Origin: PVC group bacterium
Lineage (GTDB): Bacteria > Omnitrophota > Gorgyraeia > B26-G9
Direction of reading: 5' to 3'
Assembly (NCBI GenBank): GCA_024231215.1
Contig: JAAEQR010000034.1
Location: 12,668-76,667 of the forward strand
Length of the DNA: 64,000 nucleotides
Every line of letters starts with the position of its first letter. Positions within the stretch are counted from its first letter, which is position 1. Below the pieces are notes generated by a model, which saw only the letters and a list, made by a program, of their open reading frames with translations, was not told the origin of the DNA and ran no database searches. This document shows, piece after piece, positions 21,845 through 44,245 of the stretch. The translations under genes were made by a program, and so were the position numbers.

Positions 21845-22393
21845 CTATACCCAGACTTCATTGAGACCTTTTTTAATCTCAGTAAAGCCTAGTAAAATTC
21901 TTTTTCTTTCCCAGCCGATACTTCGAAGATATTTATATAAATCTTCTTTCTTTAATCTTTTACAAAAATTCTCTTTTTCCTTTTTCTTGATTTCTGTTGG
22001 CGGGTTAAAGAAAATGTCAACGATGTCCTGAGAATCTTGGGACATATTCAGAATCGTCGCATCAATAATGCTATTGACGTTTTCCTGTCTTTTATCTTCA
22101 ACTTGAAAATCATCAATGTCAACAATAATTCTCCTTTCCCAAAAATGGTTTTTTCCTTCTCTTCTTCTCTGTTCCCCAGACAATTCACGACATTTTGTAT
22201 AGAGTCCAAAGTATAAAGAGTTTGATAAAAAATTCTCAAACTTTCCAATTTTGGGATCAAAATTCTCAGCACACTGACAAAAAATTAAATTCGCCTCAGA
22301 CAAAATCTCTTCTCTTTCCAAGCGATTTTTTCTCATCACTGAAGATACTGCACGATCAATAATAGGCTTTGAATCTAGATAAAGTTTTTCCAT
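21845..22393 (-). CDS. sigma-70-family-like protein (region 2 and HTH-like C-terminus), putative phage sigma factor
   Basis: EANLIFCQCAENFDPKIGKFENFLSNSLYFGL aligns with sigma region 2.2-2.3 (LiQeGniGLmkAvekFDPerGfkFsTYAtwwI). Confidence 0.4.
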   Translation of the reverse strand: MEKLYLDSKPIIDRAVSSVMRKNRLEREEILSEANLIFCQCAENFDPKIGKFENFLSNSLYFGLYTKCRELSGEQRRREGKNHFWERRIIVDIDDFQVEDKRQENVNSIIDATILNMSQDSQDIVDIFFNPPTEIKKKEKENFCKRLKKEDLYKYLRSIGWERKRILLGFTEIKKGLNEVWV

Positions 22394-22419
22394 AATGTTA
22401 CCCTCTTATAATAGTTTTT

Positions 22420-22466
22420 AAGATTTATAAAAATCTTATGTAAGGCTATTAAAAATTAATAGCCTT
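22420..22466 (-). promoter_or_regulatory. early-gene promoter/hairpin cassette (TTAATA-17-TATAAA; hairpins A 22420-22437, B 22442-22466)
   Basis: Hairpin A AAGATTTataaAAATCTT; hairpin B AAGGCTATTAA-aaa-TTAATAGCCTT; on the minus strand the -35 lies in an arm of B and the -10 in the loop of A. Confidence 0.45.
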
Positions 22467-22479
22467 ACCATAATGACTT

Positions 22480-23573: not shown

Positions 23574-23595
23574 CTTTTTAATAATAATAGTTTTT

Positions 23596-23641
23596 AAGAT
23601 TATAAAAATCTTATGTAAGACTATTAAAAATTAATAGCCTT
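23596..23641 (-). promoter_or_regulatory. early-gene promoter/hairpin cassette (hairpins A 23596-23612, B 23617-23641)
   Basis: Near-identical copy of the 22420..22466 cassette (A shortened by one T; B with one A/G change). Confidence 0.45.
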
Positions 23642-23654
23642 ACCATAATGACTT

Positions 23655-23975: not shown

Positions 23976-23998
23976 AATTCTTTCTCCTTTTTAATAAA

Positions 23999-24054
23999 GT
24001 TCTCGCCTTCCGAGTTCTCGCCTTCCGAGTTCTCGCCTTCCGAGTTCTCGCCGA
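23999..24054. repeat. iteron-like direct repeats, 3.7 x 15 bp (GTTCTCGCCTTCCGA)
   Basis: Units at 23999-24013, 24014-24028, 24029-24043, and a partial unit 24044-24054; GC-rich island in AT-rich DNA. Confidence 0.8.
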
Positions 24055-24067
24055 GTGTAACGAAAAT

Positions 24068-24226
24068 TCTCAAAACCAAAAATCCTGGATTTTCGAAATT
24101 TTTTCCAGCACCGAAAAGAAACATTTTTTGATGTTTCTGCAGCACCGAAAAGAAACATTTTTTTGATGTTCCTAGACTATCCCGAAAATTTTCAGAATCG
24201 AAAAAACCAGGTTTTTCGAAATTTGA
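24068..24226. repeat. cluster of inverted repeats plus a 33-bp direct repeat (x2) in a non-coding leader
   Basis: AAAATCC-t-GGATTTT (24079-24093); two copies of CAGCACCGAAAAGAAACATTTTTTGATGTTTCT (24106-24138, 24139-24172), each holding palindrome AGAAACAT-n6-ATGTTTCT; CGAAAAAACC-a-GGTTTTTCG (24199-24218). Confidence 0.7.
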
Positions 24227-24257
24227 AATTTTTTAAAAAACCCTTAATAATAAATTT

Positions 24258-24320: not shown

Positions 24321-25220
24321 TTAATCATTTTCTTTATAATCTACATTGTTATTATAATGTAGATTATTAGAATATTCATTTTCACAAAATTCAATGCAAG
24401 TTTCACAAAGTAATAATCCCTCATACGCCTCTAAATCATCAACTTGATGATCAGTGTCGCAAAATTCGCATTTTGTGACAACATTTTTATCAGCGTATTT
24501 TGATTTATTACTTTTTTTACCGTAAACTTGACCAGTATATTTATTATAATCATAACCACTTCCATAAACACTCCCGCAAAATCGATCATAATAATCGTTT
24601 GACATATACTTATTTTTATAAGTATATTTCTCTTGTTTATAAGTAGTGTTGGAATAATAAATATTTTTGTCTTTTTCAAAATCACCAAAAGAAAATAAAT
24701 ATCCTTTTTCGTCAAGTGCTATAACTCTAGATCCTTTTAAAGATATTTTCAACAATTTTTTAATATGATCTTTTTCAAAATCACAATTAGAAAAATTTGC
24801 TAAAATGTCTTTCACGAAAATTTGAGAATCTGACAAATTTTCATTTTTTTTGTCAGTAATGGAGATAACTCCATTGTGTGCAAAACCTTTTTCGCTGATA
24901 ATTTCAGTACTTTGTAATAATGAAATATTGTCAGTGATAGGAAAAGGATGACAATTTTCCGCCTTTACTTTTCCCGCGGTTGCTATCCTAGCGTGAATAA
25001 CTATACTGACATCCTGTTCATGTAATCCAAAATCAAAAAGTTTTGCATTCAAACTTTTCCTTAATGCTTTCGCACTTGAAAAACCTTTTTTAATAAATAC
25101 TCCTTTACTGGGAATATTAAACATATAACCAGCGCCATCGGGATTATTTATCAAACAATTTTTAACAATACTGTTATCCGGTAAAAATTGCTTTTTCGGT
25201 TTGTAAATAATAATACACAT
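24321..25220 (-). CDS. class-II glutamine amidotransferase-like (Ntn hydrolase, YafJ-type) protein with C-terminal zinc ribbon
   Basis: N-terminal Met-Cys (MCIIIYKP; Cys2 nucleophile after Met removal); HARIATAG fits the H-x-R-x-A-T-x-G motif of GATase-II; C-terminal CEFCDTDH...CETCIEFC. Confidence 0.5.
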   Translation of the reverse strand: MCIIIYKPKKQFLPDNSIVKNCLINNPDGAGYMFNIPSKGVFIKKGFSSAKALRKSLNAKLFDFGLHEQDVSIVIHARIATAGKVKAENCHPFPITDNISLLQSTEIISEKGFAHNGVISITDKKNENLSDSQIFVKDILANFSNCDFEKDHIKKLLKISLKGSRVIALDEKGYLFSFGDFEKDKNIYYSNTTYKQEKYTYKNKYMSNDYYDRFCGSVYGSGYDYNKYTGQVYGKKSNKSKYADKNVVTKCEFCDTDHQVDDLEAYEGLLLCETCIEFCENEYSNNLHYNNNVDYKEND

Positions 25221-25249
25221 AATAGTTAACCCTTTTTAATAATAAATTT

Positions 25250-25302
25250 AAGATTTATAAAAATCTTATACCTAGCTATCAATAATAAAAATTGACAGCT
25301 AG
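25250..25302 (-). promoter_or_regulatory. early-gene promoter/hairpin cassette (hairpins A 25250-25267, B 25272-25302)
   Basis: Same A/B hairpins as 24258..24310, one mismatch in B's right arm. Confidence 0.5.
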
Positions 25303-25316
25303 CTACAAAATTTCAA

Positions 25317-26615
25317 TTAAATTCCCTTTTCAATACAAGCTTGCAAAAATTGCTTGTATTTTAATTTTCTAGCCATTTCAAGAACATTTTGCCAGTTCAT
25401 TTTTTGAATTGACATTATACTATCATTTTCGGCGATAATAGCAATCAAATTAGTTAATTGCATAAATCCAATTAAAGAATTTATTTTTAATGTTCCGCGC
25501 CATAATCTAAACTCAATTGTTGAAATGGGTATTAAATTAACACTTTGATAGCGTCCTTGCTTGACATTTTTTTCTTTAATGCCAGTGACAAGCTTTTTAT
25601 TTAATTTTCCTAGATCTTCATTTTTATGACAATAATTCAGATTATTTCTTTTTGAGAAAAGAAATAAATGTTGCCACAATTTCTCGAAAATTAAACAAAT
25701 TTTAGTTGCTGACAATTCATAATTTGAAAAATATTGACGATTTACATGGATATGAAATCCACAATTTCCCGAATTATGAGAAACGGCATTATAATCACGA
25801 CATATTTCAACTAATTTTTGTAAAGGGAATTTATTGACAAAAAAATCTAGAGTGCAAGGTTGTGAACAAATTTCAATTCCTAGATCTGACAATGAACCGT
25901 CTGTTTTTAAATAAAAATATTTTTCATTTTCACTTAAATTATATAATTCATAAACTAAATCGGGTACATTATCAATTTTTTCAATCTCTAGCTCCCAACC
26001 TAAAAACAAGTCAGTTGCTTTTTTTTGTGAAATGGAATGAAAAGTCATTCTATTCGGTGTATAATCATAATTATGTAAGTGTTCAATGCACCCATGATCA
26101 TTATAGCAATCTTCACAATAAGATCGGTGACATGATTCACAATAATAAGATTGATCATCGTGATATAAATCACCACAACGTGAACACGTAAAGTATTCTT
26201 CTAGACAATTTTCGCATAAACAATGATCATTATTATAATGATAATGATCATTGTCCCGATGTATATCACATTCACAACTATCACAAACTAGGTAATCATT
26301 TTCATAACAAGTTTGACAAACTATTCTATTTCCATCATTTATAGAAATAGAATCATCATTAAGATGAACATTTCCGCAATCGTCACACTCAAAAAATAAT
26401 TCCTCAAAACATTCTTCACAATAATTTTTTCTGTTAATTCGCTGTAGATTTTCCCTATCTCTTTCAAAATGTTCCTTACAATGACTACACTTAAAAACAT
26501 TGTTTTTAAAACATTCTGAACAATAAGAAAAATCCTCATTGTGATATTCAGTTACAACTTGTCCACAACTAGAACAAACTTTTTCCGCTTGTACTTCTTT
26601 TTCCTCTTTTTCCAT
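25317..26615 (-). CDS. Amidoligase_2-family-like protein with N-terminal Cys-rich zinc-ribbon repeats
   Basis: N-terminal ~190 aa hold more than ten C-x2-C pairs; the C-terminal half has GWELEIE, KTDGSL..GIEICSQP and CGFHIHV, resembling amidoligase (GS-like) motifs. Confidence 0.45.
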   Translation of the reverse strand: MEKEEKEVQAEKVCSSCGQVVTEYHNEDFSYCSECFKNNVFKCSHCKEHFERDRENLQRINRKNYCEECFEELFFECDDCGNVHLNDDSISINDGNRIVCQTCYENDYLVCDSCECDIHRDNDHYHYNNDHCLCENCLEEYFTCSRCGDLYHDDQSYYCESCHRSYCEDCYNDHGCIEHLHNYDYTPNRMTFHSISQKKATDLFLGWELEIEKIDNVPDLVYELYNLSENEKYFYLKTDGSLSDLGIEICSQPCTLDFFVNKFPLQKLVEICRDYNAVSHNSGNCGFHIHVNRQYFSNYELSATKICLIFEKLWQHLFLFSKRNNLNYCHKNEDLGKLNKKLVTGIKEKNVKQGRYQSVNLIPISTIEFRLWRGTLKINSLIGFMQLTNLIAIIAENDSIMSIQKMNWQNVLEMARKLKYKQFLQACIEKGI

Positions 26616-26646
26616 AATATTTAACCCTTTAAATAATTATAAATTT

Positions 26647-26697
26647 AAGGTTATAAAAACCTTATAACTAACTATCAAAAATTATTTGATAGTTAGA
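26647..26697 (-). promoter_or_regulatory. early-gene promoter/hairpin cassette (TTGATA-17-TATAAC; hairpins A 26647-26663, B 26668-26697)
   Basis: A AAGGTTataaaaAACCTT (compensated variant of AAGATTT/AAATCTT); B CTAACTATCAAA-aattat-TTTGATAGTTAG. Confidence 0.5.
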
Positions 26698-26712
26698 TAC
26701 AAAATTTTAAAA

Positions 26713-26988
26713 TTAAACAGACTCGGATAATATGCAATCTAGACAATAATTTTTCCCATTTATTTTATTTGTCTTTTCTTTATATCTTTCAAAATATCCA
26801 TTGCAATGGCTACACTTAAAAATATTTTTTAGATACGTTTTTTCTTTTCGGTCAAATAATGTAATCTCTTTCCAAATTTTGTTATTTGACTTAACATTAA
26901 AACGATCAATCGCCTGTTTTTTATAACAGTATGTCCACTCATAAACCGTTCCGCCATTTCGTACCATTGTTATTAAAAATCTTTTCAT
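26713..26988 (-). CDS. small zinc-ribbon protein
   Basis: CSHCNGYFERYKEKTNKINGKNYCLDC. Confidence 0.45.
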   Translation of the reverse strand: MKRFLITMVRNGGTVYEWTYCYKKQAIDRFNVKSNNKIWKEITLFDRKEKTYLKNIFKCSHCNGYFERYKEKTNKINGKNYCLDCILSESV

Positions 26989-27018
26989 AATATTTAACCC
27001 TTTAAATAATTATAAATT

Positions 27019-27069
27019 TAAAGTTTATAAAAAACTTTATAACTAACTATCAAATAATATTGATAGTTA
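27019..27069 (-). promoter_or_regulatory. early-gene promoter/hairpin cassette (hairpins A 27019-27037, B 27042-27069)
   Basis: A AAAGTTTataaaaAACTTT; B CTAACTATCAA-ataat-ATTGATAGTTAG; TTGATA-18-TATAAA on the minus strand. Confidence 0.45.
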
Positions 27070-27082
27070 GATACAAAATTTT

Positions 27083-27226
27083 ATTAAGCTATTTTTTGCC
27101 TGATTGCATTACGTCTAGAAAAAACTTTACCATTTTTATCAACTTCAAAAATGGTTTGAACATAAATAATTTTATTTCTTAAGTCTACAGCTTTTATCCA
27201 TTTTGTTTTTTTGATAATTTTCATTT
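27083..27226 (-). CDS. small basic protein (47 aa)
   Basis: Manually translated MKIIKKTKWIKAVDLRNKIIYVQTIFEVDKNGKVFSRRNAIRQKIA; AGGAAT SD; not in track. Confidence 0.3.
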
Positions 27227-27235
27227 TTTTTATTC

Positions 27236-27652
27236 CTAGATTATATCATATTTACGGAAAAGAGAAAAAACTTTACTTGTAATAAAATTAAAATAATTAA
27301 AAATTATTTTATCTTTATCATCATTACAAAGTTTGATATTTTCCCAATTTTCAAAAAGTGAAACAATATCTTTTTCAGATTTAGCAATTTTAAAACAGGA
27401 ACTTTTATTGGAAAGCCACTCTTTAAAGGCTAATTGTTTAGTTAGCCCTTTATATGGTTTTATTCGATAATAACCATACTGTTCCATAAAAATATCATGT
27501 AGAAATTCAAGCTTTGAAGCATTGGTCAAATTGCCGTAAAAATAATTGCTATGATCAATACTATCTAAAATATACTTACTACTTTTTTGATATAACTTTT
27601 CATTAGACATAATAAGCCCCTTTTTTAATTTAATATTTAAACATAAAATCAT
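27236..27652 (-). CDS. hypothetical protein
   Basis: 138 aa; first gene of the leftward arm next to the control region. Confidence 0.45.
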   Translation of the reverse strand: MILCLNIKLKKGLIMSNEKLYQKSSKYILDSIDHSNYFYGNLTNASKLEFLHDIFMEQYGYYRIKPYKGLTKQLAFKEWLSNKSSCFKIAKSEKDIVSLFENWENIKLCNDDKDKIIFNYFNFITSKVFSLFRKYDII

Positions 27653-28139
27653 TTTAATAATTATAAAATGACTTTATGTAAAAACATTATAAATAATGTT
27701 TTTACAACTAATTACATTGAAATCTGAAATATACAATTAAAAAATGCATATCGCTTGTAATTAGATTTTAGGGTTTTTATTATGTTAAAGGGTTTTGATT
27801 GGGATTACTTTATTTGATTTACTTGCTTTTTGCAAATTTCCGGTTTGCCCGTTTTCAATCAATCAAGATGTTTAAAACATCTTTTTTTTCATCCGTATAT
27901 TTTCAAAGATCAATAGTTAAAAACAACTATTTTGAAATAAACATTTAACATATAAAATCATTAAATATTTATTTACTAACTGTATATAGTATCGCTATAT
28001 ATAGTCAATTTGTCAATAGCTATTTTAAAAAAATTGCCTTTTTTTAGAAAAAAATTCAATAAGTTAGTCTAGCCTAATTTAGCTAATTATAACACTAATT
28101 AGAAAGTAGTAACACGATTTATCCTACACAATTTAAGAA

Positions 28140-28610
28140 ATTACAATAATTACATAATCCAGGATAATTGAATCATTTTAAATAATTACTAAAAATGAAT
28201 AAAATGGCTATAATCGGGATAACAAGCATTTTAAATAATTGATCTATTTTAAGTAATTACAATAAATGAAGTAAGTACAGAAAATGATTATAATAAACAA
28301 TTACTAAAATTAAACTAATTACAGAAAATGAATAAAATACCAGTATCATAATAAACAATTACAATAATTTAAGTAATTACAAAAAATGAACAGAACAACC
28401 ATTTTCCATAATTACAAAAAATGAAATAAATAACCTGGTTTTAATAAATTGAATCATTTTAAATAATTACTAAAAATAGACAAAATAAGCCAATACCATT
28501 TTAAACAATTACTTAAAATGAATAAATGAAAAAACTTACAAAATACTACAAACAATTACAATAAGTACTTAAAATGAATAAAATGAAGTAATTATTAAAA
28601 ATGTTAAAAA
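28140..28610. repeat. array of about 12 degenerate direct repeats, core AATTAC(T/A)AAAAATGAATAAA
   Basis: Copies near 28186, 28255, 28300, 28314, 28358, 28375, 28410, 28465, 28507, 28554, 28573, 28593; a longer ~30-bp unit TTGAATCATTTTAAATAATTACTAAAAAT occurs at 28168 and 28449; ORF-free. Confidence 0.75.
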
Positions 28611-28870
28611 AAGCTATAGAGTAGATATAAACAATCATATAGACCTTGCTATAATATACCCTCATACTGTATATAAGACACGCCATAAGCATATAGAATA
28701 CTCTATACCCATATACTATAGAGTGCTTAATATAATGGCTATAGAAGGGTATATATTAAGCCATATAGAGTGTCATATATAATAATGGCTTAAGAAGGGG
28801 ATATATTAAGGATGTAAGCTGATTGACGGCTTAAGAGTGGTATATAAAGACATATAGCGATATTATAACC
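28610..28870. repeat. cluster of (C/T)ATATAGAG-type short motifs and three ~29-bp direct repeats
   Basis: AATGGCTATAGAAGGGTATATATTAAGCC (28734-28762), AATGGCTTAAGAAGGGGATATATTAAGGA (28783-28811), CGGCTTAAGAGTGGTATATAAAGAC (28826-28850); at least 6 copies of nTATAGnG. Confidence 0.6.
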
Positions 28871-29082
28871 GGAACTCAATCCAAAAATTATAATATTGCA
28901 ATAATGCGATATAGTTAACACTATAATCAAGTAGACATAATTACTATTTTGTCTTATTATATAAACTATACATAATCATATATTATGTATAATAAAAGGC
29001 TAAACCATGTCACACACTATATATGGTACTGTTTAACCCCGCGTGTTTTCCCAGGAAATTTTTTAGGGGGTGGTGTTTTCTG

Positions 29083-29160
29083 GGGGATCCCCCGCTTAAG
29101 CCATCCGAACATAACCATCCGCTTAAGCCATCCGAACATAGCCATCGCTTAAGCCATAAA
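29083..29160. repeat. GC-rich palindrome GGGGGATCCCCC followed by 2.6 x 27-bp direct repeats (CGCTTAAGCCATCCGAACATAACCATC)
   Basis: Repeats at 29093-29119, 29120-29145 and a partial copy at 29146-29160, immediately upstream of the first rightward promoter. Confidence 0.7.
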
Positions 29161-29174
29161 AACAGAAAAAAGTG

Positions 29175-29202
29175 TTAGTCATCTACCTATACGTGATATA
29201 TA
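29175..29202 (+). promoter_or_regulatory. promoter AAAAAAGTG-TTAGTC-16-TGaTATATA
   Basis: -35-like TTAGTC 29175-29180, extended -10 TGaTATATA 29194-29202, ~18 nt before the ATG at 29221. Confidence 0.5.
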
Positions 29203-29220
29203 GGGGTTAGAGAGGTAAAG

Positions 29221-29460
29221 ATGGAAATAAACTCAATTTTTGAAATAGGTTGTAAGATTGCGATAGGAGGTGTGTGGATTTCTATAATTCTTGCACTTTT
29301 GTTTTTTTGGCATTGGTTTTGGGAAAAAGTTACTAATCGCTGGTTCGTCAGAGAAATCAGTGCTTCGGCTGCGTTAGAGGTTTTTGGTACGATTTCCTGC
29401 ACTATTATATCTATTGGTCTGATAATAGCGTTTATTGGTCTTTTAGTGGGGGAAGGTTAA
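29221..29460 (+). CDS. small membrane protein (2 TM)
   Basis: 79 aa; hydrophobic segments IAIGGVWISIILALLFF and GTISCTIISIGLIIAFIGLLV. Confidence 0.5.
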   Translation: MEINSIFEIGCKIAIGGVWISIILALLFFWHWFWEKVTNRWFVREISASAALEVFGTISCTIISIGLIIAFIGLLVGEG

Positions 29461-29464
29461 AACA

Positions 29465-29692
29465 ATGAAGAGAACGGATGAAAGGTGTAAAGTAGCTTTA
29501 CAATGTATTGTAGATCTGCAATCCATGGGAAGTTACTTCTTATGGGCAAAAATGGCAGCTATTGCAAGATATGCGTTAACCGGGGAAGTTGATGAACTGG
29601 AACCATGGCCTGTGCCTCAAGAAGTGAAAGATAAGATTGATCAGACATGCAGTGATTCCGGTTATACTGGCAAAATAGAGAAAAAGTGTTAG
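29465..29692 (+). CDS. hypothetical protein
   Basis: 75-aa ORF. Confidence 0.45.
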   Translation: MKRTDERCKVALQCIVDLQSMGSYFLWAKMAAIARYALTGEVDELEPWPVPQEVKDKIDQTCSDSGYTGKIEKKC

Positions 29693-29716
29693 TCATTCCC
29701 GTTATAGTGATATATA
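29689..29716 (+). promoter_or_regulatory. promoter AAAAAGTG-TTAGTC-16-TGaTATATA (second copy)
   Basis: TTAGTC 29689-29694; TGaTATATA 29708-29716; precedes the ATG at 29736. Confidence 0.5.
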
Positions 29717-29735
29717 GGGATGATGGGGGCATAAG

Positions 29736-30278
29736 ATGAACACATGGTTTACATCAGATTTACATCTGGGACATGAAAATATAATCGAGTATTGTAAGCG
29801 CCCTTTTAAAGATGGTGAGCATATGGACAAAACTCTTATTAGAAATTGGAATGAAAGAGTTAAAGATGATGATACAGTTTTCCATCTTGGAGATTTTTGT
29901 TTTAAAGGAGGATGGGAAGGTGGGGGGAATAAAGCTCGATATTGGGAAAATCAATTAAATGGTAAGGTTATTCATGTATCTGGAAATCATGATAAAAATA
30001 ATTCTACAAAATCAATTCTTACTCAAGCTATTTTTGAATTCGGTAATAAAAAAATTATAGCTCGGCATGTACCCTTTGAGAATACAAATGAAATTCCCTC
30101 GGAAATAGATTATGCGTTAGTAGGTCATGTACATGAGAAATGGAAACAGAAATGGTTATATGATGAGTTTAACTATAGGCTGAATATTCCAATGATAAAT
30201 GTTGGTGTGGATGTTTGGGACTTTAGACCTATTAAGTTAATAGAGATAATAAAATATTATGAGAGGGTGATAATATGA
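29736..30278 (+). CDS. metallophosphoesterase (calcineurin-like)
   Basis: SDLHLGHEN, GDFCFKG and VSGNHD: D-x-H / GD / GNH[DE] motifs of MPP enzymes. Confidence 0.7.
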   Translation: MNTWFTSDLHLGHENIIEYCKRPFKDGEHMDKTLIRNWNERVKDDDTVFHLGDFCFKGGWEGGGNKARYWENQLNGKVIHVSGNHDKNNSTKSILTQAIFEFGNKKIIARHVPFENTNEIPSEIDYALVGHVHEKWKQKWLYDEFNYRLNIPMINVGVDVWDFRPIKLIEIIKYYERVII

Positions 30279-30667
30279 GAGAAATTAAGTTCAGGGCTTA
30301 TGACAGGGTGAAGGAGAAGTGGATGTGGCCTTATCCGGAGGGATTTCATATCATTGGTGAGGTAACTGTATTCAATATGCTTAACGGGGTGCCGTTAAGG
30401 AATTTTAATGATATTGAGATCTTACAGTTTACCGGATTGTATGATTTTAATGATGTTCCGATATATGAAGGTGATATTCTGATTGCAGATCCCTTGAAGT
30501 ATGCGGATGAGACTACCCCTTACCAGGTTATTTTTGAGGATGGGTGCTTCAGGATGGAATATGCGGAATGGGAAAGAGGTTTAGGGAGGCCTGCGATTAC
30601 GAAGTCCGGTTTACGGATTCTGGATGATGTGGTTATTGGAAATAAATTTGAGGGGTTGAAAAGATGA
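30275..30667 (+). CDS. YopX-like phage protein
   Basis: MREIKFRAYD, LQFTGLYDFNDVPIYEGDIL and VIGNKFE match the YopX family consensus. Confidence 0.6.
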   Translation: MREIKFRAYDRVKEKWMWPYPEGFHIIGEVTVFNMLNGVPLRNFNDIEILQFTGLYDFNDVPIYEGDILIADPLKYADETTPYQVIFEDGCFRMEYAEWERGLGRPAITKSGLRILDDVVIGNKFEGLKR

Positions 30668-33513: not shown

Positions 33514-34512
33514 ATGCCAAAGATACTAATGCTTGATCCTAACCCTAAATCTGCAGTTTCTTTTTATCGCAGTATCGGGACTTTTTCATATCTTCACAGG
33601 TTAGACCCAAATGTTCATTACGAACTGCTTTCCGTTTACAACTGGAATACATGGATGGGCGCAGATATTCTGTATGTGCAGAGGCCATACGCTGACGATC
33701 ATCTTGGAGCGATAGTTGAAGCACAAAAATGTAATGTAAAAGTGTGGGTTGACACAGATGATTTACTTCATGAAATCCCGAATTACAATCCTAACCACAG
33801 AACTTTTAACAATCCTAAAGAAAAATTCCTGGATAATTTCTTAAACTCAGTAAAAAGAGCGGATGTTGTTACTGTTACAACTGAAGTTTTAAAGGATTAT
33901 TATTCTGAGTACAATGAGAATGTTCAGATAGTGGAAAACGCTCACAATGATTATGCTTTCCCTTTTATGAAACTTATCGGGGATTCAGCAAAGGCAATAA
34001 ACTGGAGAGGGAGCAACACTCACCGGATGGACGTTCTATCGGTTGCTCAACAGATAGTGAATGTCCGTGAAAAGCATAAAGACTGGAAATGGATTTTTGT
34101 CGGAAACGATTTATGGTATATAACAGAACTTCTCAAAGGGAACGCCATAGAGATTCCCGAAAAACCTATTCTGACATTCTTTGAACTCCTCAGAACCGTC
34201 GGCAGTTCTATACAGGTTGTCCCTCTCGTTGATAATAATTTTAATCGTGCTAAATCCTCTATATCCTGGATAGAGGCTACTTATGGGGGAATGACTACGG
34301 TTGCTCCGAACTTCCCAGAGTTTAATAAGCCGGGCTGTTTGTGTTATGAAGGAGAAGAACAGTTTGAATATTATCTTGAGAAATGTATTAAATCTAAAGC
34401 TTTTCGTCAGGAAAATTATGAGAAATCCTTTAAGTATATAAAGGAAAACTTACTGTTAAGTCAGGTTAACCGGAAAAGGATGGATATCATAAACGAGTTG
34501 AGGAATAAATGA
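33514..34512 (+). CDS. putative glycosyltransferase (GT-B-like), first gene of the sugar operon
   Basis: 332 aa; Rossmann-like C-terminal half; weak assignment. Confidence 0.3.
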   Translation: MPKILMLDPNPKSAVSFYRSIGTFSYLHRLDPNVHYELLSVYNWNTWMGADILYVQRPYADDHLGAIVEAQKCNVKVWVDTDDLLHEIPNYNPNHRTFNNPKEKFLDNFLNSVKRADVVTVTTEVLKDYYSEYNENVQIVENAHNDYAFPFMKLIGDSAKAINWRGSNTHRMDVLSVAQQIVNVREKHKDWKWIFVGNDLWYITELLKGNAIEIPEKPILTFFELLRTVGSSIQVVPLVDNNFNRAKSSISWIEATYGGMTTVAPNFPEFNKPGCLCYEGEEQFEYYLEKCIKSKAFRQENYEKSFKYIKENLLLSQVNRKRMDIINELRNK

Positions 34513-35027
34513 TAGTTGCAGATTATATAGTCAAGTATCTTGAAGATTATGGAGTAAAACACTGCTTCTCCGTTGTCGGTGGAGGGAGCATGTGGTTGAA
34601 CAACTCTTTCGGAAAATCAAAGAAAATTAAAACTGTATATATGCACCATGAACAGGCTTGCGCGATTGCCGCAGAGGGATATTCCCGAGTGAATAATGAT
34701 TTGTCTGTGGTTTGTGTCACCACTGGCCCCGGAGGATTAAACTGTCTTACAGGGGTAATGGGGCAATGGACGGATTCTGTCCCTGTCCTGTATATTTCAG
34801 GACAGGTTGATTCAAGAACAATCAAAACAAGTAATCTTCGTCAGTTGGGGGATCAGGAAGTTGATATAATTAGTGCGGTTAAACCAATAACCAAATTCTC
34901 TCTTTTATTAAGGGATAGTATTGATTTGTATTTTTGGTTGCGTATTATGATTAACACGGCGATGGCGCATAGGAGAGGGCCAGTGTGGATTGATATCCCC
35001 TGGGATGTTCAAAAAGAAAAGGTATAA
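34509..35027 (+). CDS. TPP-dependent enzyme, N-terminal (Pyr) domain subunit (ALS/YerE-like)
   Basis: YIVKYLEDYGVKHCFSVVGGGSMWL...HHEQACAIAAEGYSRV...VVCVTTGPGGLNCLTGV...DSVPVLYISGQV: canonical TPP_enzyme_N including the catalytic Glu in HEQ; stop overlaps the next ATG (TAATG). Confidence 0.75.
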   Translation: MIVADYIVKYLEDYGVKHCFSVVGGGSMWLNNSFGKSKKIKTVYMHHEQACAIAAEGYSRVNNDLSVVCVTTGPGGLNCLTGVMGQWTDSVPVLYISGQVDSRTIKTSNLRQLGDQEVDIISAVKPITKFSLLLRDSIDLYFWLRIMINTAMAHRRGPVWIDIPWDVQKEKV

Positions 35028-35452
35028 TGAATATAGAAAGATATGAGAACCCACTGATAATAGCTGGTCACGGAATACGCTTATCTGGCGCGATAGATTT
35101 ATTCCACGAATTGTTAGACAAGTTAAATATCCCCGTAGTTACAACCTTTAATGGATTTGATATAGTAGCTTCTGATCATCCGAATTTTGCAGGAAGAATA
35201 GGAACCATGGGTACTCCCGAAGGGAATAAGATATTAAGGGAAGCGGATCTGGTTTTGTGTATAGGGACTCGGAACAATGTCAGGCAAATAGGTTATAAGA
35301 AAGAGGCCTTCGCCAAGAGTGCAAGAAAAGTGGTTCTTGTGGATGTGGATGAAGATGAATTATATAAAACTGGCGTTGGTTTAAAAGTGAGAAGGTTCTG
35401 TTGCATGGATGCGAAACAATTTATTCAGGAGTGTTTGGATTACGATGATTGA
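35027..35452 (+). CDS. TPP-dependent enzyme, central domain subunit
   Basis: PLIIAGHGIRLSGA...LNIPVVTTFNGFDIVASDHPNFAGRIGTMGT...ADLVLCIGTR aligns with the ALS central domain; TGA overlaps the next ATG (ATGATTGA). Confidence 0.7.
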   Translation: MNIERYENPLIIAGHGIRLSGAIDLFHELLDKLNIPVVTTFNGFDIVASDHPNFAGRIGTMGTPEGNKILREADLVLCIGTRNNVRQIGYKKEAFAKSARKVVLVDVDEDELYKTGVGLKVRRFCCMDAKQFIQECLDYDD

Positions 35453-35999
35453 TCCATATAATTTTATAAAAGTATTAACAAAAAATTTACCGGAAGACGC
35501 TATAGTGGTTTGCGCTAATGGAACCCCATGCGTTACAATGTTTCAAGAAGGTGTTGTCAAGAAGGGGCAGAGGATCTTCTGGAACTCCGGATGTGCTGCC
35601 ATGGGTTATGCCCTTCCTGCTGCGATAGGGGCTCATTATGCAAGTGGCAAAGAAGTAATCTGCATAGAGGGTGACGGGAGTTTGATGTTTAATTTACAGG
35701 AACTTCAGACAATAGACCACCATGAGCTCCCGATTAAATTGTTCGTATTTAACAATGGTGGTTATCACTCAATAAAGGAAACTCAGGATGTTTTTTTTAA
35801 AGGCGATTATCATGGCAGTGCCTTGGGAGATGTTAGTTTTCCGGATTGGGAAGAAGTCGCGGAAACATTCAACTTCCCATATTTTGTTATGGATGGGGAC
35901 GATAGAGGTGTGATTGCTCACTTCCCTTTTAATAAGTTTAAAAATGTTTTTATTGAAGTTAAATTAGGTGAATATAAATTTAGGAGGCAGGAATTATGA
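35445..35999 (+). CDS. TPP-dependent enzyme, C-terminal (PP) domain subunit
   Basis: TPP-binding motif GDGSLMFNLQELQTIDHHELPIKLFVFNNGGY (GDG-x25-NN); start taken at the in-frame ATG 35445 overlapping the upstream stop, rather than track 35409. Confidence 0.75.
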   Translation: MIDPYNFIKVLTKNLPEDAIVVCANGTPCVTMFQEGVVKKGQRIFWNSGCAAMGYALPAAIGAHYASGKEVICIEGDGSLMFNLQELQTIDHHELPIKLFVFNNGGYHSIKETQDVFFKGDYHGSALGDVSFPDWEEVAETFNFPYFVMDGDDRGVIAHFPFNKFKNVFIEVKLGEYKFRRQEL

Positions 36000-36463
36000 A
36001 TGGTTATCAAGAGCCTTGTCCTAAATGCGGGACACTTTCTTCCGGCTGTTCGGTCTTCACGAACGGGGCGATTTCTCAAGACTTTTGTAAATGTCCTGAA
36101 TGCGGTATTGCTTTCCCAAAAAAGGGTTCAACGGCAAAAGTTGAAATAATTGATGATGAAGAATTCTTTTCGGTACCCAAACCAGAAAAATTCTCATTAA
36201 AAGAAATATGTATTTGCGCAGCAGTAAAAGCAGTTGATGGAACCATTATTCGTGGACACAGGCACAGGGATTGTAGAGATGGGATAATAAGGAGAGGGAA
36301 AGAACCCATGAAAGAATGGGCTGGAGATGGTTTTATCACTTCTTACGGGAGGTTCGTTGACAGGATAGAGGGTTACGAGTTGATGAAATCTATCGACTGG
36401 GAATCTGTTAATCCGGAAGGGTATCAGAAGTGTGAGTGGTTATTCTCGGAAGATTTATATTAA
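35996..36463 (+). CDS. zinc-ribbon protein with uncharacterised C-terminal domain
   Basis: CPKCG...CKCPECG; ATGA-coupled to the upstream gene. Confidence 0.45.
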   Translation: MNGYQEPCPKCGTLSSGCSVFTNGAISQDFCKCPECGIAFPKKGSTAKVEIIDDEEFFSVPKPEKFSLKEICICAAVKAVDGTIIRGHRHRDCRDGIIRRGKEPMKEWAGDGFITSYGRFVDRIEGYELMKSIDWESVNPEGYQKCEWLFSEDLY

Positions 36464-36478
36464 AAGAGAGGTATAATT

Positions 36479-37261
36479 ATGAATAAGTTAGAATACGAAA
36501 TGATTGAAACTCTTAAGCGCTTGAAGAATGATTATGGGTGTATACAGATTAAGGCTGAGTTCGAGAACGAGGGAAGTCGTCAGGTAGAACTTTGTCGGCT
36601 TAAAGATGTAATAAGCAAAGTAGACATACCGTTAATTCTTAAGATTGGCGGTGTAGAAGCAGTAACAGATATATACGAGGCCTTGACGATAGGGGCGAAG
36701 GGGATAGTTGCTCCCATGGCCGAAACTGCTTACGCGCTTTCTAAATTTATTGATGCTGTGGAAAAATTCGTTCCGAAGGATAATCGGGAAGATGTTGAAT
36801 TTGCCGTGAACATTGAGACTATTACAGCGTATGAAAATTTTGAAAAAATGCTTAAATTAAAGAACATTGATGTTCTCCAAAGCGTGACAGTCGGGCGGGT
36901 GGATTTTACAGGTTCACTCGGGGAAGATAGAAATTATGTTGATACAGTAACAATGCGTGAACTTTGCAAAAATATCTTTTCTAAAGCTAAGGCTAAAAAT
37001 TTACGAACAGCTTTGGGCGGGGCTATTTCTTCTGCGTCAGAAACTTTCCTGGAAACTTTAACTGAAGAAAATTTATTGAACAAATACGAAACTCGGAAAA
37101 TTGTATATGATATCGAAGGGTTAAAAACCTATAAGGAAGGTTTAGAGGAAGGAATAAAATTTGAACTTCAGTGGTTGAAAAGTAAAGAGAGATATTATCA
37201 TCTGATAGCAATTGAAGACGAAAAAAGAATAAAAATGTTGGAGGAGAGAGTCAATGGGTGA
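36479..37261 (+). CDS. TIM-barrel aldolase/lyase-like protein (HpcH/HpaI or PEP-utilising family?)
   Basis: 260 aa; KIGGVEAVTDI...IVAPMAETAYA resembles aldolase/lyase barrels; weak. Confidence 0.3.
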   Translation: MNKLEYEMIETLKRLKNDYGCIQIKAEFENEGSRQVELCRLKDVISKVDIPLILKIGGVEAVTDIYEALTIGAKGIVAPMAETAYALSKFIDAVEKFVPKDNREDVEFAVNIETITAYENFEKMLKLKNIDVLQSVTVGRVDFTGSLGEDRNYVDTVTMRELCKNIFSKAKAKNLRTALGGAISSASETFLETLTEENLLNKYETRKIVYDIEGLKTYKEGLEEGIKFELQWLKSKERYYHLIAIEDEKRIKMLEERVNG

Positions 37262-38300
37262 GTGTGGAATATGTGGTCATGAATTAAACAAAGACGTTCT
37301 GGTTCTGGAGAATATCCCGGAAAAAACATTCTGTTTCTCAGACAAAACTGTTACTTTAAACATCGCGAAGTGTGGTCACTGCGGAGTAGTGCAGTTATTT
37401 GACGTTCCATTAAACGATGATTTCAGGGATGTCCATCGAAGTATAGAATCAATGCCCGGCCACCGGATGAAAAAGAAGAAAGACTTGGACGATTTTATAG
37501 AAGAGTTTGGTTTGTGGAGCAAAAGGTTTTTCGAAATGGGTTGTGGCAATGGACAGTATTTGGATATTCTCAGGGAAATAGGTGTTGAGTGCGACGGGTA
37601 TGAAGCCAATGAAGACAACATAGATGAATGTATAGACAAAGAGTATTGTGTTTCCGACGGTGTTGCTTTTAAAGAGGAAATTTTTAATAAATATGATGTT
37701 ATTTTTTCTTTTTATTTTTTAGAGCATATGCCTGATCCGGTGGATGTCTTAACAAATGTTTATGACAAGCTTAACCCCGGAGGGATGATTTACATAGAAG
37801 TCCCGAACTATAAGTACATAGAAAAAGATGGGCTCTGGCTTGAGTTCACAAGAGACCACAGGTTTTATTATGACCTTTCTTCTATGAGATTTTTATTATC
37901 AAAAACTGGCTTCAAATTGCTTAAGATAACTCCGGGAGACTTGACTTTAAAAGTGATAGCGAAGAAACCGGACGACTTCGAGAATGTCCGGGAAAGCATG
38001 GAAAAAGACATAGTCGATTTTGATATATTAACTAACAAGATAGGAAATTATGTTATAGTTGGCGCAGGACATTATACTCAAACACTGTTAAACAAGACTG
38101 CTAATAAGCCTGTACAAATATATGATTCCGTTCCCGACAAGATAGGGAAAATTCTTTGTGGAGTGAAAATTTTACCCCAGGGAGAGATTCGGGATTGTGA
38201 ATTTAATAATATTATTATAAGTTGCGGGGCGTACAATCAAGAAGCGGAGAAAAATATTGAAAGACTTACGGAAGGAAAGAATATAATTATCTGGGGGTAG
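37254..38300 (+). CDS. SAM-dependent C-methyltransferase-like (N-terminal zinc ribbon + class I MTase + C-terminal Rossmann-like domain, TylC3/NovU architecture)
   Basis: CGICGHEL...CGHCG; MTase motif I FEMGCGNGQYLD; the three-part layout matches NDP-hexose C-methyltransferases. Confidence 0.55.
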   Translation: MGECGICGHELNKDVLVLENIPEKTFCFSDKTVTLNIAKCGHCGVVQLFDVPLNDDFRDVHRSIESMPGHRMKKKKDLDDFIEEFGLWSKRFFEMGCGNGQYLDILREIGVECDGYEANEDNIDECIDKEYCVSDGVAFKEEIFNKYDVIFSFYFLEHMPDPVDVLTNVYDKLNPGGMIYIEVPNYKYIEKDGLWLEFTRDHRFYYDLSSMRFLLSKTGFKLLKITPGDLTLKVIAKKPDDFENVRESMEKDIVDFDILTNKIGNYVIVGAGHYTQTLLNKTANKPVQIYDSVPDKIGKILCGVKILPQGEIRDCEFNNIIISCGAYNQEAEKNIERLTEGKNIIIWG

Positions 38301-38301
38301 C

Positions 38302-39402
38302 ATGTCGTATACACAGAGAGAAGAACAAGTAAGAGAGTCTATTGAAGTTCGCAAACCTGTCGCATGGGCTAAGATTCAGCAAACTGACCAGAGAGTAAAA
38401 GAAGGAAAAAGCATCGCCCTTTTACAACTGCAATACAGATATGTCTGTAATGAAGTTTGCAAACACTGTGCTATAGAACGGTTTAAAGTTAACTTGGAAG
38501 GTAGAAAATTAACTCCTGCCGATGTGAAAGATATTGCAGATCAGGCTCATGAGTATGGGCTATTTTCTATCTGCATTTCGGGAGGTGAACCGTTAATCTT
38601 TCATGATCTGGAACAGGTAATAGACGCTATCGGCCCAGAAAGATTCATATTATCAATGGACACTAATGGGTTGGCTTTATCTCAACATGAGATAAAATGG
38701 CTGGTAACGAAAGGGGTTGACCGTATTCACCTGAGTATTGATGGGTTACAGGAAAATCACGACGAGTTTAGACACGAAGAAGGAGCATGGCAGCATAATA
38801 TAGACATGCTTCCATATTGTAAACAGTATGGGCTTGGAGTTGTTGTGAACATAGTTGCCACTAAAGATTTGGTAAGAAGCAGAGAAATAGAAGAACAACT
38901 TGAGTTTATACAGAAGTTTGGTTTTCATGCTTCTTTGATTTATGCGAAACCAGTTGGTAATTTTGAAGAGGCTGGAGACCAGGTTTTAAACAAAAAAGAT
39001 TTTGCATATCTTGAAACTTTAACGAAAAAGTATAACTGTTCAACTCACCTTACTCCCGCTTACGGCAGAGATGTTGGCTGTCTGTGTTTCAAGCGCCACT
39101 TTTCAATACTGCCAAACGGGAAAGTCCTTCCCTGTCCATGGCTCCCGATTTCTATGGGGAACGTACTGGAAGAAAAACTGGAAACAATTATAACAGGGTC
39201 GTTGATGAATCCATGGTTTAGCTGGAAGCATAAACACACTTGTCATTCGGGAAATCAGGATTCTTATTTTTATAAAAATGTTGTTTCTCAGTTAGATGAA
39301 CTCCACGATCTCTTTGGATATCCGGTTGACTGGAAATTGTTGAATTGGCATTTTGAATACTTCAGGAAGAGTTCCACTAAAATTACTGAGAAGGGGAGCT
39401 AA
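38302..39402 (+). CDS. radical SAM enzyme with SPASM/twitch-like C-terminal Cys cluster
   Basis: CNEVCKHC (C-x3-C-x2-C), ISGGEPL, C-terminal CLCFKRHFSILPNGKVLPCPW. Confidence 0.75.
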   Translation: MSYTQREEQVRESIEVRKPVAWAKIQQTDQRVKEGKSIALLQLQYRYVCNEVCKHCAIERFKVNLEGRKLTPADVKDIADQAHEYGLFSICISGGEPLIFHDLEQVIDAIGPERFILSMDTNGLALSQHEIKWLVTKGVDRIHLSIDGLQENHDEFRHEEGAWQHNIDMLPYCKQYGLGVVVNIVATKDLVRSREIEEQLEFIQKFGFHASLIYAKPVGNFEEAGDQVLNKKDFAYLETLTKKYNCSTHLTPAYGRDVGCLCFKRHFSILPNGKVLPCPWLPISMGNVLEEKLETIITGSLMNPWFSWKHKHTCHSGNQDSYFYKNVVSQLDELHDLFGYPVDWKLLNWHFEYFRKSSTKITEKGS

Positions 39403-40371
39403 ATGGAGATTGGTGAAAGAGATATTGTAGAGGAAGATATAAAAAAAGTATTATCTGAAAATCTGCCATGGAACAGGCTGAGAAATAAAACGATAGCGGT
39501 TTCCGGTTCAAGAGGTTTTATTGCTTCGTGGATAGTTAAATTATTAGAATCAATACAGGAAGAATATAATATTACAATCTGGCATATCAATAAACCTGAA
39601 TATGATATTAACAGGTCTCTGTTCAGTATTGGTGTCCCCAAGAGAGTAGATTATATTTTTCATGCAGCCAGTTATGCGTCACCTCTAAAGTTCAAAGAAA
39701 ATCCTGTAGATGTGATCTTGCCGAATACGATTGGTACTCATAACCTGTTGAAATTGGCAGATGCGAAAGAGGCTGAGTTTGTATACTTCAGCACATCGGG
39801 GGTTTACGGGTGGCATGATTTTGATGACTACCCTTTGTCCGAAAAACAATTCGGCAGACTTGATTGTTCTGAAGTAAAGAACTGTTATCTTGAATCAAAA
39901 AGACTGGGGGAACAGTTGTGTGTTTCTCACAGTTATCAGTATGATATAGAAATCAAGATTCTCCGGCTGGGGATATGCTATGGCCCGGGGTTAAGCCTGG
40001 ATGATGGTCGCGTGATGAATACTTTTATAAAGAAAATACTTGATAAAAAAGAACTACCTGTATACAATGAGCATGTCTATCGGAGTTTTATGTATATAAC
40101 GGATGTTCTTAGCGCAATTTTTACAATTTTATTCCACGGGGAAAATAGCCCATATAATGTATCAGCAGACAAAGAAATTTCCATCCTTCAATTAGCCCAA
40201 TTGTTTTCTTCCATGTACCCGAACTCAAAATTGAGTTACCTAAAACGGACAGACAGGTTGAGTGTTGACTTCAACAGGACATGGATGAATACAGGAAAAT
40301 TGAAAAATCTCGGCTGGGAACAAAGAGTCAGCTTAGAAGATGGTATAGAAAGAACAGTGGAGAGTTACTAG
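39403..40371 (+). CDS. NAD-dependent epimerase/dehydratase (extended SDR)
   Basis: Gly-rich IAVSGSRGFIAS and catalytic Y-x3-K (YLESKRL). Confidence 0.75.
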   Translation: MEIGERDIVEEDIKKVLSENLPWNRLRNKTIAVSGSRGFIASWIVKLLESIQEEYNITIWHINKPEYDINRSLFSIGVPKRVDYIFHAASYASPLKFKENPVDVILPNTIGTHNLLKLADAKEAEFVYFSTSGVYGWHDFDDYPLSEKQFGRLDCSEVKNCYLESKRLGEQLCVSHSYQYDIEIKILRLGICYGPGLSLDDGRVMNTFIKKILDKKELPVYNEHVYRSFMYITDVLSAIFTILFHGENSPYNVSADKEISILQLAQLFSSMYPNSKLSYLKRTDRLSVDFNRTWMNTGKLKNLGWEQRVSLEDGIERTVESY

Positions 40372-43109: not shown

Positions 43110-43110
43110 T

Positions 43111-43818: not shown

Positions 43819-44245
43819 TAAAAAAGAAAAGTTTTTTGAGTCTGAAACAAAAAGGTTTATAGAGTATTTCGGCTTAAAAAACTGGGAAATAGAAATTTGC
43901 CGAACGGAGTCCGATGATTCTCGGGCTTCCTGTATTGCGAGAGAATCATTTGACGGTTCTTTGTCTGACAGGCTGGCTTTAATTCAATATGATAAGGAAT
44001 GGATAAATAGCGAAATTCCTTATGAAGAAATATCAAGGTCTGCATTCCACGAAGTTATGGAAATCCTTTTAATGGTTTTGCGGAATTATAATAAATATCG
44101 GGACAAGCATCTTTCATACGGAACCATAGATTCAGAGGTACATAATATAATAAGAACGCTTGAGAATACAATATATGAGGATTTTTTAAAACCAAAAATA
44201 AGGAAGAAAAATGGCAACAAAAAACATAGAAAGTCAAACTCGTAG
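43802..44245 (+). CDS. hypothetical protein
   Basis: 147 aa, last gene of the coupled block. Confidence 0.45.
   Translation: MEESLNKKEKFFESETKRFIEYFGLKNWEIEICRTESDDSRASCIARESFDGSLSDRLALIQYDKEWINSEIPYEEISRSAFHEVMEILLMVLRNYNKYRDKHLSYGTIDSEVHNIIRTLENTIYEDFLKPKIRKKNGNKKHRKSNS

Follow-up and report, generated by a model that had tools for sequence, protein, structure and literature searches.

The window analyzed here is a 64-kb stretch of DNA (contig JAAEQR010000034.1, positions 12,668 to 76,667, filed under a PVC group bacterium), taken from a source contig of ~90 kb, 26 kb of which lie outside it. It is part of the genome of a lytic-looking phage from an uncultivated deep lineage. Between two divergent gene arms lies a gene-free stretch at positions 27611 to 29220, which we read, with even confidence, as a noncoding control region that combines divergent promoters with an iteron-type replication origin. 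The two parts of this reading differ in firmness. Judged from the sequence, the stretch is very probably a control region with divergent promoters, while the case for a replication origin within it is circumstantial and at best evenly balanced.

Layout of the gene-free region

The first-pass annotation had placed a strand switch here, with no credible open reading frame (ORF) between the arms, and both observations held. All ORFs of at least 150 amino acids (aa) lie on the minus strand up to 26615 and on the plus strand from 29736, the sole exception being a spurious overlapping ORF. By a crude gene call, 37 genes run leftward as far as 27652 and the rightward ones begin at 29221, and the GC skew changes sign between 28 and 29 kb. 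As the ATG at 27610 is preceded by the AAAGGGG Shine-Dalgarno sequence of the lineage, the first leftward gene probably starts there rather than at 27652, giving a gap of 1,610 bp (27611-29220). The gap holds just eight ORFs of 33 to 55 aa, none with a significant PHROG match (the single weak one, E = 0.033, belongs to the ORF at 29023-29178). No tRNA, transfer-messenger RNA (tmRNA), or Rfam family was found in it, the one chance-level Rfam match (E = 0.99) falling outside the gap. A hidden gene was likewise rejected, as the small ORFs lack PHROG support and the ATGAA of the array A unit described below opens no consistent frames and is without a Shine-Dalgarno sequence. The features of the region are as follows.

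27625-27710, minus strand: two-hairpin RNA cassette in the leader of the first leftward gene (arms at 27631-27656 and 27664-27689)
27865-27891, plus strand: AT-rich hairpin and run of eight U inside the leftward leader (~370 nt), terminator-like for a plus-strand transcript
28016 to 27988, minus strand: promoter-like site P_L1, TTGACA-17-GATACT with a T-run upstream, 10/12 consensus matches
28086-28116, minus strand: promoter-like site P_L2, extended -10 element TGTTATAAT (28094 to 28086) with GTGTTACTA upstream
28131-28611, plus strand: array A, nine good copies of a ~32-bp quasi-palindromic unit, with 13 AATTAC-type cores in one orientation; the unit written out as one sequence is CATTTTAAATAATTACTAAAAATGAATAAAAT
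28615-29025, plus strand: TATA-rich block, comprising array B and several -10-like boxes of the GTGATATATA family
28628-28655, plus strand: promoter-like site P_R1, TAAACA-16-TATAAT with TG (TGCTATAAT), 10/12 matches
28756 (+), 28785 (-), 28826 (-, one mismatch), 29096 (+), 29123 (+), and 29149 (+): TTAAGCCAT sites
28836-28849 (core 28838-28846), plus strand: -10-like box AGTGGTATATAAAG
28955-29079, plus strand: element X, a conserved noncoding block of ~125 nt ending in GGAAATTTTTT and then a G-run
28986-28993, plus strand: -10-like box TGTATAAT
29036-29160: GC island at the right end of the region
29082-29093: perfect 12-bp GC palindrome GGGGGATCCCCC, inside the GC island
29092-29157, plus strand: array C, 2.5 copies of a 27-bp repeat (CCGCTTAAGCCATCCGAACATAACCAT), 95% matches, score 118
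29167-29205, plus strand: promoter-like site of the first rightward gene, AAAAAGTGTTAGTCAT..N..GTGATATATAGGG, duplicated at 29681-29719

Array A ranks first among the direct-repeat families of the 64 kb and is its one strong cluster of short repeats. Its unit has the consensus cATTTTAAAT-AATTAC-tAAAAATGAAtAAAAT, and the best units are dyad symmetric at 20 of 24 positions about TAATTA (CATTTT..TAATTA..AAAATG). When the sequence AATTACWAAAAATGAA was sought with up to two mismatches, nine copies were found at 28184-28578, all on the plus strand, with one elsewhere in the window; whole-window shuffles predict 0.92 copies, and shuffles of the AT-rich DNA nearby that keep its dinucleotide composition predict 0.09. 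A search with CATTTTAAAYAATTAC, which forms the left half of the unit, gave eight matches, and 13 ARTTAY cores were counted within the array, so that the approximately 12 degenerate AATTAC(T/A) copies reported at first pass are a generous but fair count. Start-to-start spacings are 71, 62, 58, 35, 55, 42, 56, and 27 bp, the spacers varying in both length and sequence while a core of 26 to 32 bp is conserved. This pattern is expected of binding sites and not of a tandem duplication, be it recent or decaying. The units are proposed, on sequence grounds, to be iterons or sites for another sequence-specific protein. Two other identities for the array were considered and rejected. The irregular spacing rules against a CRISPR-like array or solitary repeats, and the unit, which presumably lacks the stem of Cas12a repeats (TTTAAATAATT), resembles them just superficially. 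Promoters of a phage sigma-like factor were also rejected: that single loose match apart, the motif is confined to the array within the window, which speaks against a general late promoter.

To the right of array A, the 300 bp at 28615-28914 are the TATA-richest of the window, with 25 TATA occurrences against a window mean of 2.6 (standard deviation, 2.3), and G[AGT]TATAWW occurs at 11.3 per kb in the TATA-rich block compared with 1.1 per kb in the window. Array A and this neighboring block are among the least stable 150-bp duplex segments. The TATA-rich block is accordingly a candidate rightward promoter cluster, a candidate DNA unwinding element, or both. Array B within it has a period of 50 bp, with 1.9 copies at 28717-28810 and a third, partial copy at 28828-28846. 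It had been described as a cluster of (C/T)ATATAGAG motifs with three ~29-bp repeats. The array is real, as are two 29-mers that are 90% alike, but the third copy is partial, the repeat is one of 50 bp, and the exact motif is present only once, the looser YATAGAR occurring seven times. The GC palindrome and 27-bp repeats reported at the right end, in contrast, were recovered much as described. Each array C copy contains the palindrome GCTTAAGC. Immediately downstream of the array comes the -35 region of the promoter-like site that precedes the first rightward gene.

All three arrays proposed at first pass are real, but they are not all distinct: arrays B and C are not independent, as TTAAGCCAT is common to both. 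Five exact copies of this motif fall within 28756-29157 compared with two in the rest of the window, and local shuffles lead to an expectation of 0.02 to 0.06 copies. The motif forms an inverted pair in array B and three direct copies in array C, and its sites bracket the rightward promoter-like sites. It is predicted to be the binding site of one regulator.

The promoter-like sites belong in part to a family specific to this phage, of the form AAAAAGTGTT(A/T)G(T/A)C..N..(C)GTGATATATA, in which AAAAAGTGTT is the -35-like part. Five exact copies of GTGATATATA were found in the window, at 7698 and 20196 on the minus strand and at 29193, 29707, and 32177 on the plus strand, where 0.12 would be expected, and all five are co-oriented with the local genes and lie 17 to 21 nt before a start codon. 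The site at 29167-29205, placed at first pass at the end of array C as the first rightward promoter, is a real promoter-like site and a member of this five-member family. Looser copies of the family were seen at 14085, 28838, and 48270. On the leftward side, GTGTTACTA upstream of P_L2 resembles GTGTTAGTC of the rightward family. Array A (480 bp) fills the space between the leftward and rightward promoter-like sets. With promoter-like sites facing outward in both directions, array A exactly between them, and TTAAGCCAT bracketing the rightward ones, the suggestion that the region is an early-switch or regulatory hub is supported.

Related phages, element X, and leader RNAs

Starting from TerL homologs and contig look-ups, five relatives spanning the equivalent place were obtained (L002, L005, L008, L009, and L118), whose TerL proteins are 42 to 57% identical to that of the window. 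In all five, the arms diverge from an ORF-free gap of 0.3 to 1.25 kb at the same place.

L002: gap at 2262-3017
L005: gap at 3144-3921
L008: gap at 5704-6023
L009: gap at 8292-9353, including a run of 100 N (8951-9050)
L118: gap at approximately 5656-6907

In most of these gaps the top strand is A-rich, a TATA-rich block comes next, and runs of G or C stand close to the right end; in L002 the GC island is weak. The flanking genes of the relatives are unrelated to those of the window, and the repeat sequences are not conserved, each phage having its own. A comparison with related phages, as had been suggested, showed that the layout and element X are kept and that the repeats differ. The leftward promoter block of the relatives is conserved, reading AAAAGTCAAGyAAATwAAGAAAAAAA, that is, TTGACT with an upstream T-run on the minus strand, and P_L1 is its positional equivalent in the window. 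In L118 (81.7 kb, TerL 57% identical, the closest long relative), at least 12 copies of (A)CAGGATATA or CCGATATA lie within 6128-6600 and match the -10-like box TCCGATATATA found before L118 genes (at 6880, 7556, and 8128). This match of a repeat to the phage's own -10-like box supports the view of the array B block in the window as a cluster of promoter-type boxes. The 1.25-kb gap of L118 also holds CGTATAATTTTATGGAAATTTTTTC in two copies, 77 bp apart. Loci anchored on the helicase (L010-L089) were mostly too distant to compare, a few of them having long, repeat-rich divergent gaps.

Element X is homologous in the window, L002, L118 and, via L002, L005, and a four-way alignment was made. Local alignment gave z-scores of 8.8 (window and L002), 6.3 (window and L118), and 7.0 (L002 and L005), none of 200 to 300 shuffles being as good in each case. 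Its 3' end is GGAAATTTTTT followed by a G-run or a C-run. The element is single copy in the window and in L002 and locally duplicated in L005 and L118. No consensus RNA structure was found for it (RNAalifold, -1.2 kcal/mol), and it folds no better than shuffles (z = +0.6 to +0.8). Its T-run and G-run were considered as a repeated late promoter, and this was rejected, as in the window the combination is unique to the region, other loose matches lying inside genes. Six independent assemblies of relatives are interrupted, by a break or by a run of 100 N, no more than a few hundred bases from element X. Loss of coverage in AT-rich DNA or real DNA ends could be the cause.

L006: contig start falls within the region
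L003: contig start lies 45 nt into the first rightward gene
L007: contig ends in a G-rich stretch
L107 and L117: contigs start 70 to 140 nt ahead of the motif
L009: run of 100 N at 8951-9050, within the region

In the leftward leader, the fold of the minus strand at 27611-27720, which covers the two-hairpin cassette, is more stable than expected (z = -4.98; none of 200 shuffles as good). Cassettes of ~80 nt were seen in seven leftward spacers (approximately 22394-22479, 23574-23654, 24146-24230, 25221-25316, 26616-26712, 27130-27235, and 27625-27710), each laid out as a long hairpin, a second AT-rich hairpin, AAATTTATTATTAAAAAGGG, and the start codon. The stems of the long hairpins covary (CTAACTATCAA/TTGATAGTTAG, CTAGCTGTCAA/TTGATAGCTAG, and GTAAGGCTATTAA/TAATAGCCTTAC), and four cassettes that were folded gave z-scores of -4.6 to -7.0, with no Rfam match. 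RNase III-type processing is one possible role and termination another, and the cassettes could also combine a terminator with a promoter. Analogous hairpins occur between small leftward genes of L118, the leader of which, at ~320 nt, is similar in length to that of the window. The hairpin at 27865-27891 could mark the end of a short antisense RNA.

The proposed origin and rival explanations

In the mechanism that we propose, early transcription would leave the region in both directions, and replication would start there. The units of array A would be bound as iterons by the initiator-like protein encoded at 13841-15325 or by another phage DNA-binding protein. Divergent back-to-back transcription generates negative supercoiling (the twin-domain model), and this, together with the binding, would open the neighboring AT- and TATA-rich DNA, at which the DnaB-like helicase, the primase-like protein, and the DnaE-like polymerase would load. 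A second regulator, acting on the TTAAGCCAT sites, would set the activity of the rightward promoters.

Several observations speak for an origin. Among the phage genes are those for an initiator-like protein, a DnaB-like helicase, a primase-like protein, and a DNA polymerase III (PolIII) alpha subunit. The 494-aa initiator-like protein has PHROG matches of the replication-initiator and DnaD-like kinds (best named family, E = 1.7e-16) and a weak match to HTH_36. The 64 kb offer no other cluster of candidate sites than array A, which lies between back-to-back promoter-like sites and adjoins both an easily melted block and a GC flank; in iteron-type origins, a GC-richer flank follows the AT-rich unwinding region. 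No repeat cluster was found in or near the initiator gene, so that an origin inside that gene, as in lambda or SPP1, was rejected. The origin suggested at first pass is plausible: the iteron-like cluster, the replication genes, and the recurring layout favor it, but the case is circumstantial and the GC skew is confounded.

A number of points weigh against this assignment. The GC-skew minimum falls at the switch in gene orientation and so is not independent evidence of an origin, and AT-richness is not unique to the gap, the whole 23- to 29-kb stretch being AT-rich. DnaA boxes and IHF sites, for which a motif scan had been suggested, were at or below chance in the window by consensus scan, with none in the region. 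The spacings of array A are not in helical phase and show no clear 10- to 11-bp period, although helical phasing, on which cooperative Rep binding depends in the model plasmids, is typical rather than strictly defining, and control arrays such as P1 incA are irregular. At 9 to 13 copies, the array exceeds the two to seven typical of origins, and units that are partly palindromic could serve an initiator and a dimeric repressor equally. Searched with an nhmmer profile, ~1.4 Mb of related loci contained no copy of the unit; the motif is thus unique to this phage, and conservation cannot confirm its function. All the promoter-like sites are consensus matches rather than mapped transcription starts, and a generic sigma-70 scan detected 17 sites in the region where 21.9 were expected, which is no excess. 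Finally, another origin could lie in the 26 kb of the source contig beyond the window.

The palindromic units lend themselves to a purely transcriptional explanation, in which the region has no origin and array A and TTAAGCCAT are operator arrays for regulators encoded by the phage. Coating the DNA from one promoter set to the other, these would time or shut off early transcription in both directions, in parallel with the phi29 p4/p6 nucleoprotein complex at the divergent A2b/A2c and A3 promoters. Dyad symmetry of 20/24 in the best A units is typical of sites for dimeric regulators, promoter-like sites adjoin array A on both sides, TTAAGCCAT occurs as inverted pairs and, just upstream of the promoter-like site at 29167, as direct copies, and the presence of a phage sigma-like factor implies a timed transcription program. 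We nevertheless consider this explanation rather unlikely, as 9 to 13 sites over 480 bp are far above the needs of an ordinary operator, no helix-turn-helix (HTH) or repressor gene flanks the region, and the initiator-like protein would be left without any other candidate binding sites in the 64 kb. Among the flanking proteins, no Pfam domain, HTH, or repressor was detected; the left one matches phrog_11100, a family with no assigned function, and the two rightward ones match no PHROG. A lysis-lysogeny switch, one of the roles first suggested, is also unsupported, given the lack of repressor-like neighbors and of a homolog of the relatives' integrase in the 64 kb analyzed of the ~90-kb contig. 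A tyrosine recombinase of ~277 aa was observed among the early rightward genes of relatives (L002, 6124-6954; L005, 6298-7134; L007, 3236-4066; also L092 and L112), and no homolog of this recombinase/integrase was found in the 64-kb window. It might serve dimer resolution or genome integration, which bears on whether the lineage is strictly lytic.

A packaging site (pac/cos) had also been proposed. In the form considered here, the region would have a packaging signal or genome end (cos, pac, or the edge of a terminal repeat), with the GC island and its GGGGGATCCCCC palindrome as the cut site and the 27-bp repeats as terminase-binding sites. A GC-rich symmetric site does stand beside direct repeats in otherwise AT-rich DNA, element X is single copy or only locally duplicated in each genome, the region of L009 is directly upstream of a terS homolog (the gene preceding TerL), and the six assembly breaks listed above cluster near element X. 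In the window, however, no positive evidence for such a site was found: the terS-like gene and TerL are 15 kb away, and the window contig, four near-full-length relatives (69 to 74 kb), and L118 (81.7 kb) all run through the region and end at unrelated places. Extreme AT-richness and repeats explain the assembly breaks equally well. We regard a packaging role as distinctly unlikely. A locus for noncoding RNA is very unlikely, whether the product were a long A-rich leader reading rightward, a small RNA made from element X, or an antisense transcript that stops at 27865-27891. The A-rich top strand is conserved in relatives despite their differing repeats, the leftward leader contains the stable two-hairpin cassette, the plus strand has the hairpin and U-run at 27865-27891, and element X starts with a short covarying hairpin (ACATAAT/ATTATGT in the window and GGACATTT/AAATGTCC in L118), but there is no Rfam match, no consensus fold for element X, and neither a fold nor a coding signal in array A. 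It is highly improbable that the gap is a neutral spacer of AT-rich, low-complexity DNA expanded by slippage or duplication, in which only the edge promoters matter. The variable gap length among relatives (0.3 to 1.25 kb) and the unconserved repeats would fit such a spacer, but the 26- to 32-bp core is kept while the spacers vary, the opposite of decaying duplications, the orientation is uniform, and phages whose flanking genes are unrelated share the layout and element X. To our knowledge, phage genomes rarely retain 1.6 kb of useless DNA.

A more speculative version, to which we assign a low probability, makes array A, instead of a simple origin or set of operators, a bifunctional nucleoprotein platform, with a lineage-specific dimeric protein polymerizing over the ~480 bp between the promoters. 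There is a similarly slim chance that such a coat would both silence the two early promoters and license replication, in the manner of baculovirus hr elements or the polyomavirus noncoding control region (NCCR). Under the same low-probability proposal, element X (GGAAATTTTTT and then a G-run) would act as a conserved regulatory site at which rightward transcription starts. By analogy with E. coli codBA and upp, it may possibly sense nucleotide pools by reiterative transcription.

The phage genome and comparison with known systems

The main genes and modules of the two arms are as follows.

Minus strand (left arm): gp32-like single-stranded DNA-binding protein
2928-6602, minus strand (left arm): DnaE-like PolIII alpha
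Minus strand (left arm): C5 methylase, DnaB-like helicase, Toprim/primase-like protein, and SNF2 helicase
13841-15325, minus strand (left arm): initiator-like protein, 494 aa
21845-22393, minus strand (left arm): sigma-70-region-2-like protein
24321-26988, minus strand (left arm): GATase-like and amidoligase pair
Plus strand (right arm), in order: small ORFs, metallophosphatase, YopX protein, sugar-modification cluster, terS-like gene, TerL, portal, and structural genes
44211-44786, plus strand: terS-like gene
44698-46338, plus strand: TerL

The phage has no close relative among cultured viruses. Its TerL is 100% identical to an NCBI protein of a metagenome-assembled PVC group bacterium, encoded on a contig of 89,976 bp. 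Its best TerL matches among 50,697 phage records are 20 to 25% identical, none from a cultured phage being above ~25%, and they include archaeal viruses (ANMV-1 and Methanobacteriales viruses) as well as Pelagibacter phages. No solved or characterized relative was available from which to infer the packaging mode. Many of the metagenomic TerL homologs (among P0004-P0059) contain inteins, with Hint and LAGLIDADG Pfam domains; the TerL of the window is without one. In a blastn search, the DNA of the region (27000-30500) matched nothing in the 50,697 phage records or in a plasmid collection, and three exact DNA patterns from it had no match in viral, metagenome, or genome collections.

A 10-kb cluster for sugar or nucleotide-sugar modification (33514-43818) separates the early genes from the terminase and encodes a glycosyltransferase, an HpcH-type aldolase, S-adenosylmethionine (SAM) methyltransferases, a radical SAM/SPASM enzyme, an NAD epimerase/dehydratase, a DegT-type aminotransferase, and an FkbM methyltransferase. 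Part of this cluster is shared with L004, the closest TerL relative, and it may modify DNA or the cell surface. The small sigma-70 region 2-like protein near the SNF2 helicase is kept in the lineage (window, 21845-22393; L008, 1-506; L009, 5031-5513); a search of 5.8 billion proteins returned no homolog other than itself, the protein being too divergent. The amidoligase is a zinc-ribbon protein of 432 aa, the N-terminal zinc-finger segment of which (26410-26505) is duplicated at 75% identity in an adjacent 91-aa ORF (26735-26830). When closer relatives were sought, amidoligase homologs at most 42% identical were found on short contigs, and no record turned up for the metallophosphatase. Three further tandem repeats were noted: a perfect 15-bp repeat in 3.7 copies (23998-24052), GC-rich within AT-rich DNA and coding for (GENSE)n in a 91-aa ORF; an adjoining 34-bp repeat in 2.1 copies (24089-24161); and, in the structural gene region, a 45-bp repeat in two copies with 95% matches (54137-54227).

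For this lineage, the control region provides a first working map of where early transcription would start in both directions. The map defines the 32-bp unit and the 9-bp motif TTAAGCCAT as protein-binding candidates and a 1.2-kb fragment as the origin candidate. If the reading is true, the pair of origin and initiator would be a ready-made replicon for a host group without genetic tools. The value is practical rather than conceptually surprising, in that test targets are defined in an uncultured lineage.

Of the known systems with which the region can be compared, lambda cosN-cosB has a GC-rich symmetric site followed by direct repeats, upstream of the small terminase gene. That arrangement upstream of packaging genes is matched in L009, whereas in the window the packaging genes are 15 kb downstream. 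Further differences from lambda cos are that contigs run through the site and that IHF consensus sites are absent from it. In polyomaviruses, the NCCR is described as a noncoding stretch between divergent early and late arms that contains promoters in both directions, repeated protein-binding elements, and the origin (PMC7762344). The likeness of the region to this NCCR, and to the central control region of phi29, is one of layout only, the hosts, proteins, and sequences being unrelated. The phi29 region is ~220 bp, and phi29 replicates from its ends.

The ceduoviruses of Lactococcus (c2 type) have an origin in a noncoding region between divergent early and late blocks, flanked by promoters, and this origin (in the c2, bIL67, and 923 types) is well conserved within each group, with no similarity between groups (PMC7150918). 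The region described here is similarly ORF-free and placed between divergent blocks, and its relatives keep the layout but not the repeats. As no blastn match to the phage records was found, the resemblance to the origins of c2, bIL67, and 923 is one of layout and not of membership. There are also differences, in that the c2-type origin drives plasmid replication without phage proteins, whereas here an initiator-like protein, a helicase, a primase-like protein, and a polymerase are all phage encoded. The region here is moreover ~1.6 kb long and dominated by an array of 9 to 13 copies, and its origin is a predicted one.

The properties of iterons, including the two to seven copies typical of origins and their helical phasing, have been described (PMC4980987). 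An iteron origin is expected to have at least three direct repeats of ~17 to 30 bp that share an orientation, and array A, with nine copies all on the plus strand, agrees with this. From the iteron theta origins (RK2 oriV, P1 oriR/incA, F, R6K, and lambda ori), the region differs in its ~32-bp, partly palindromic units, its 9 to 13 copies, their irregular spacing, the lack of DnaA boxes, an initiator gene located 12 kb away, and the lack of similarity to any plasmid. It resembles them in having repeats of one orientation beside an AT-rich region and an initiator-like gene on the same replicon, the product of which is predicted to bind array A. The sequence is new, and the kind of element, a repeat-rich, gene-free region of promoters and origin between divergent phage modules, is well known.

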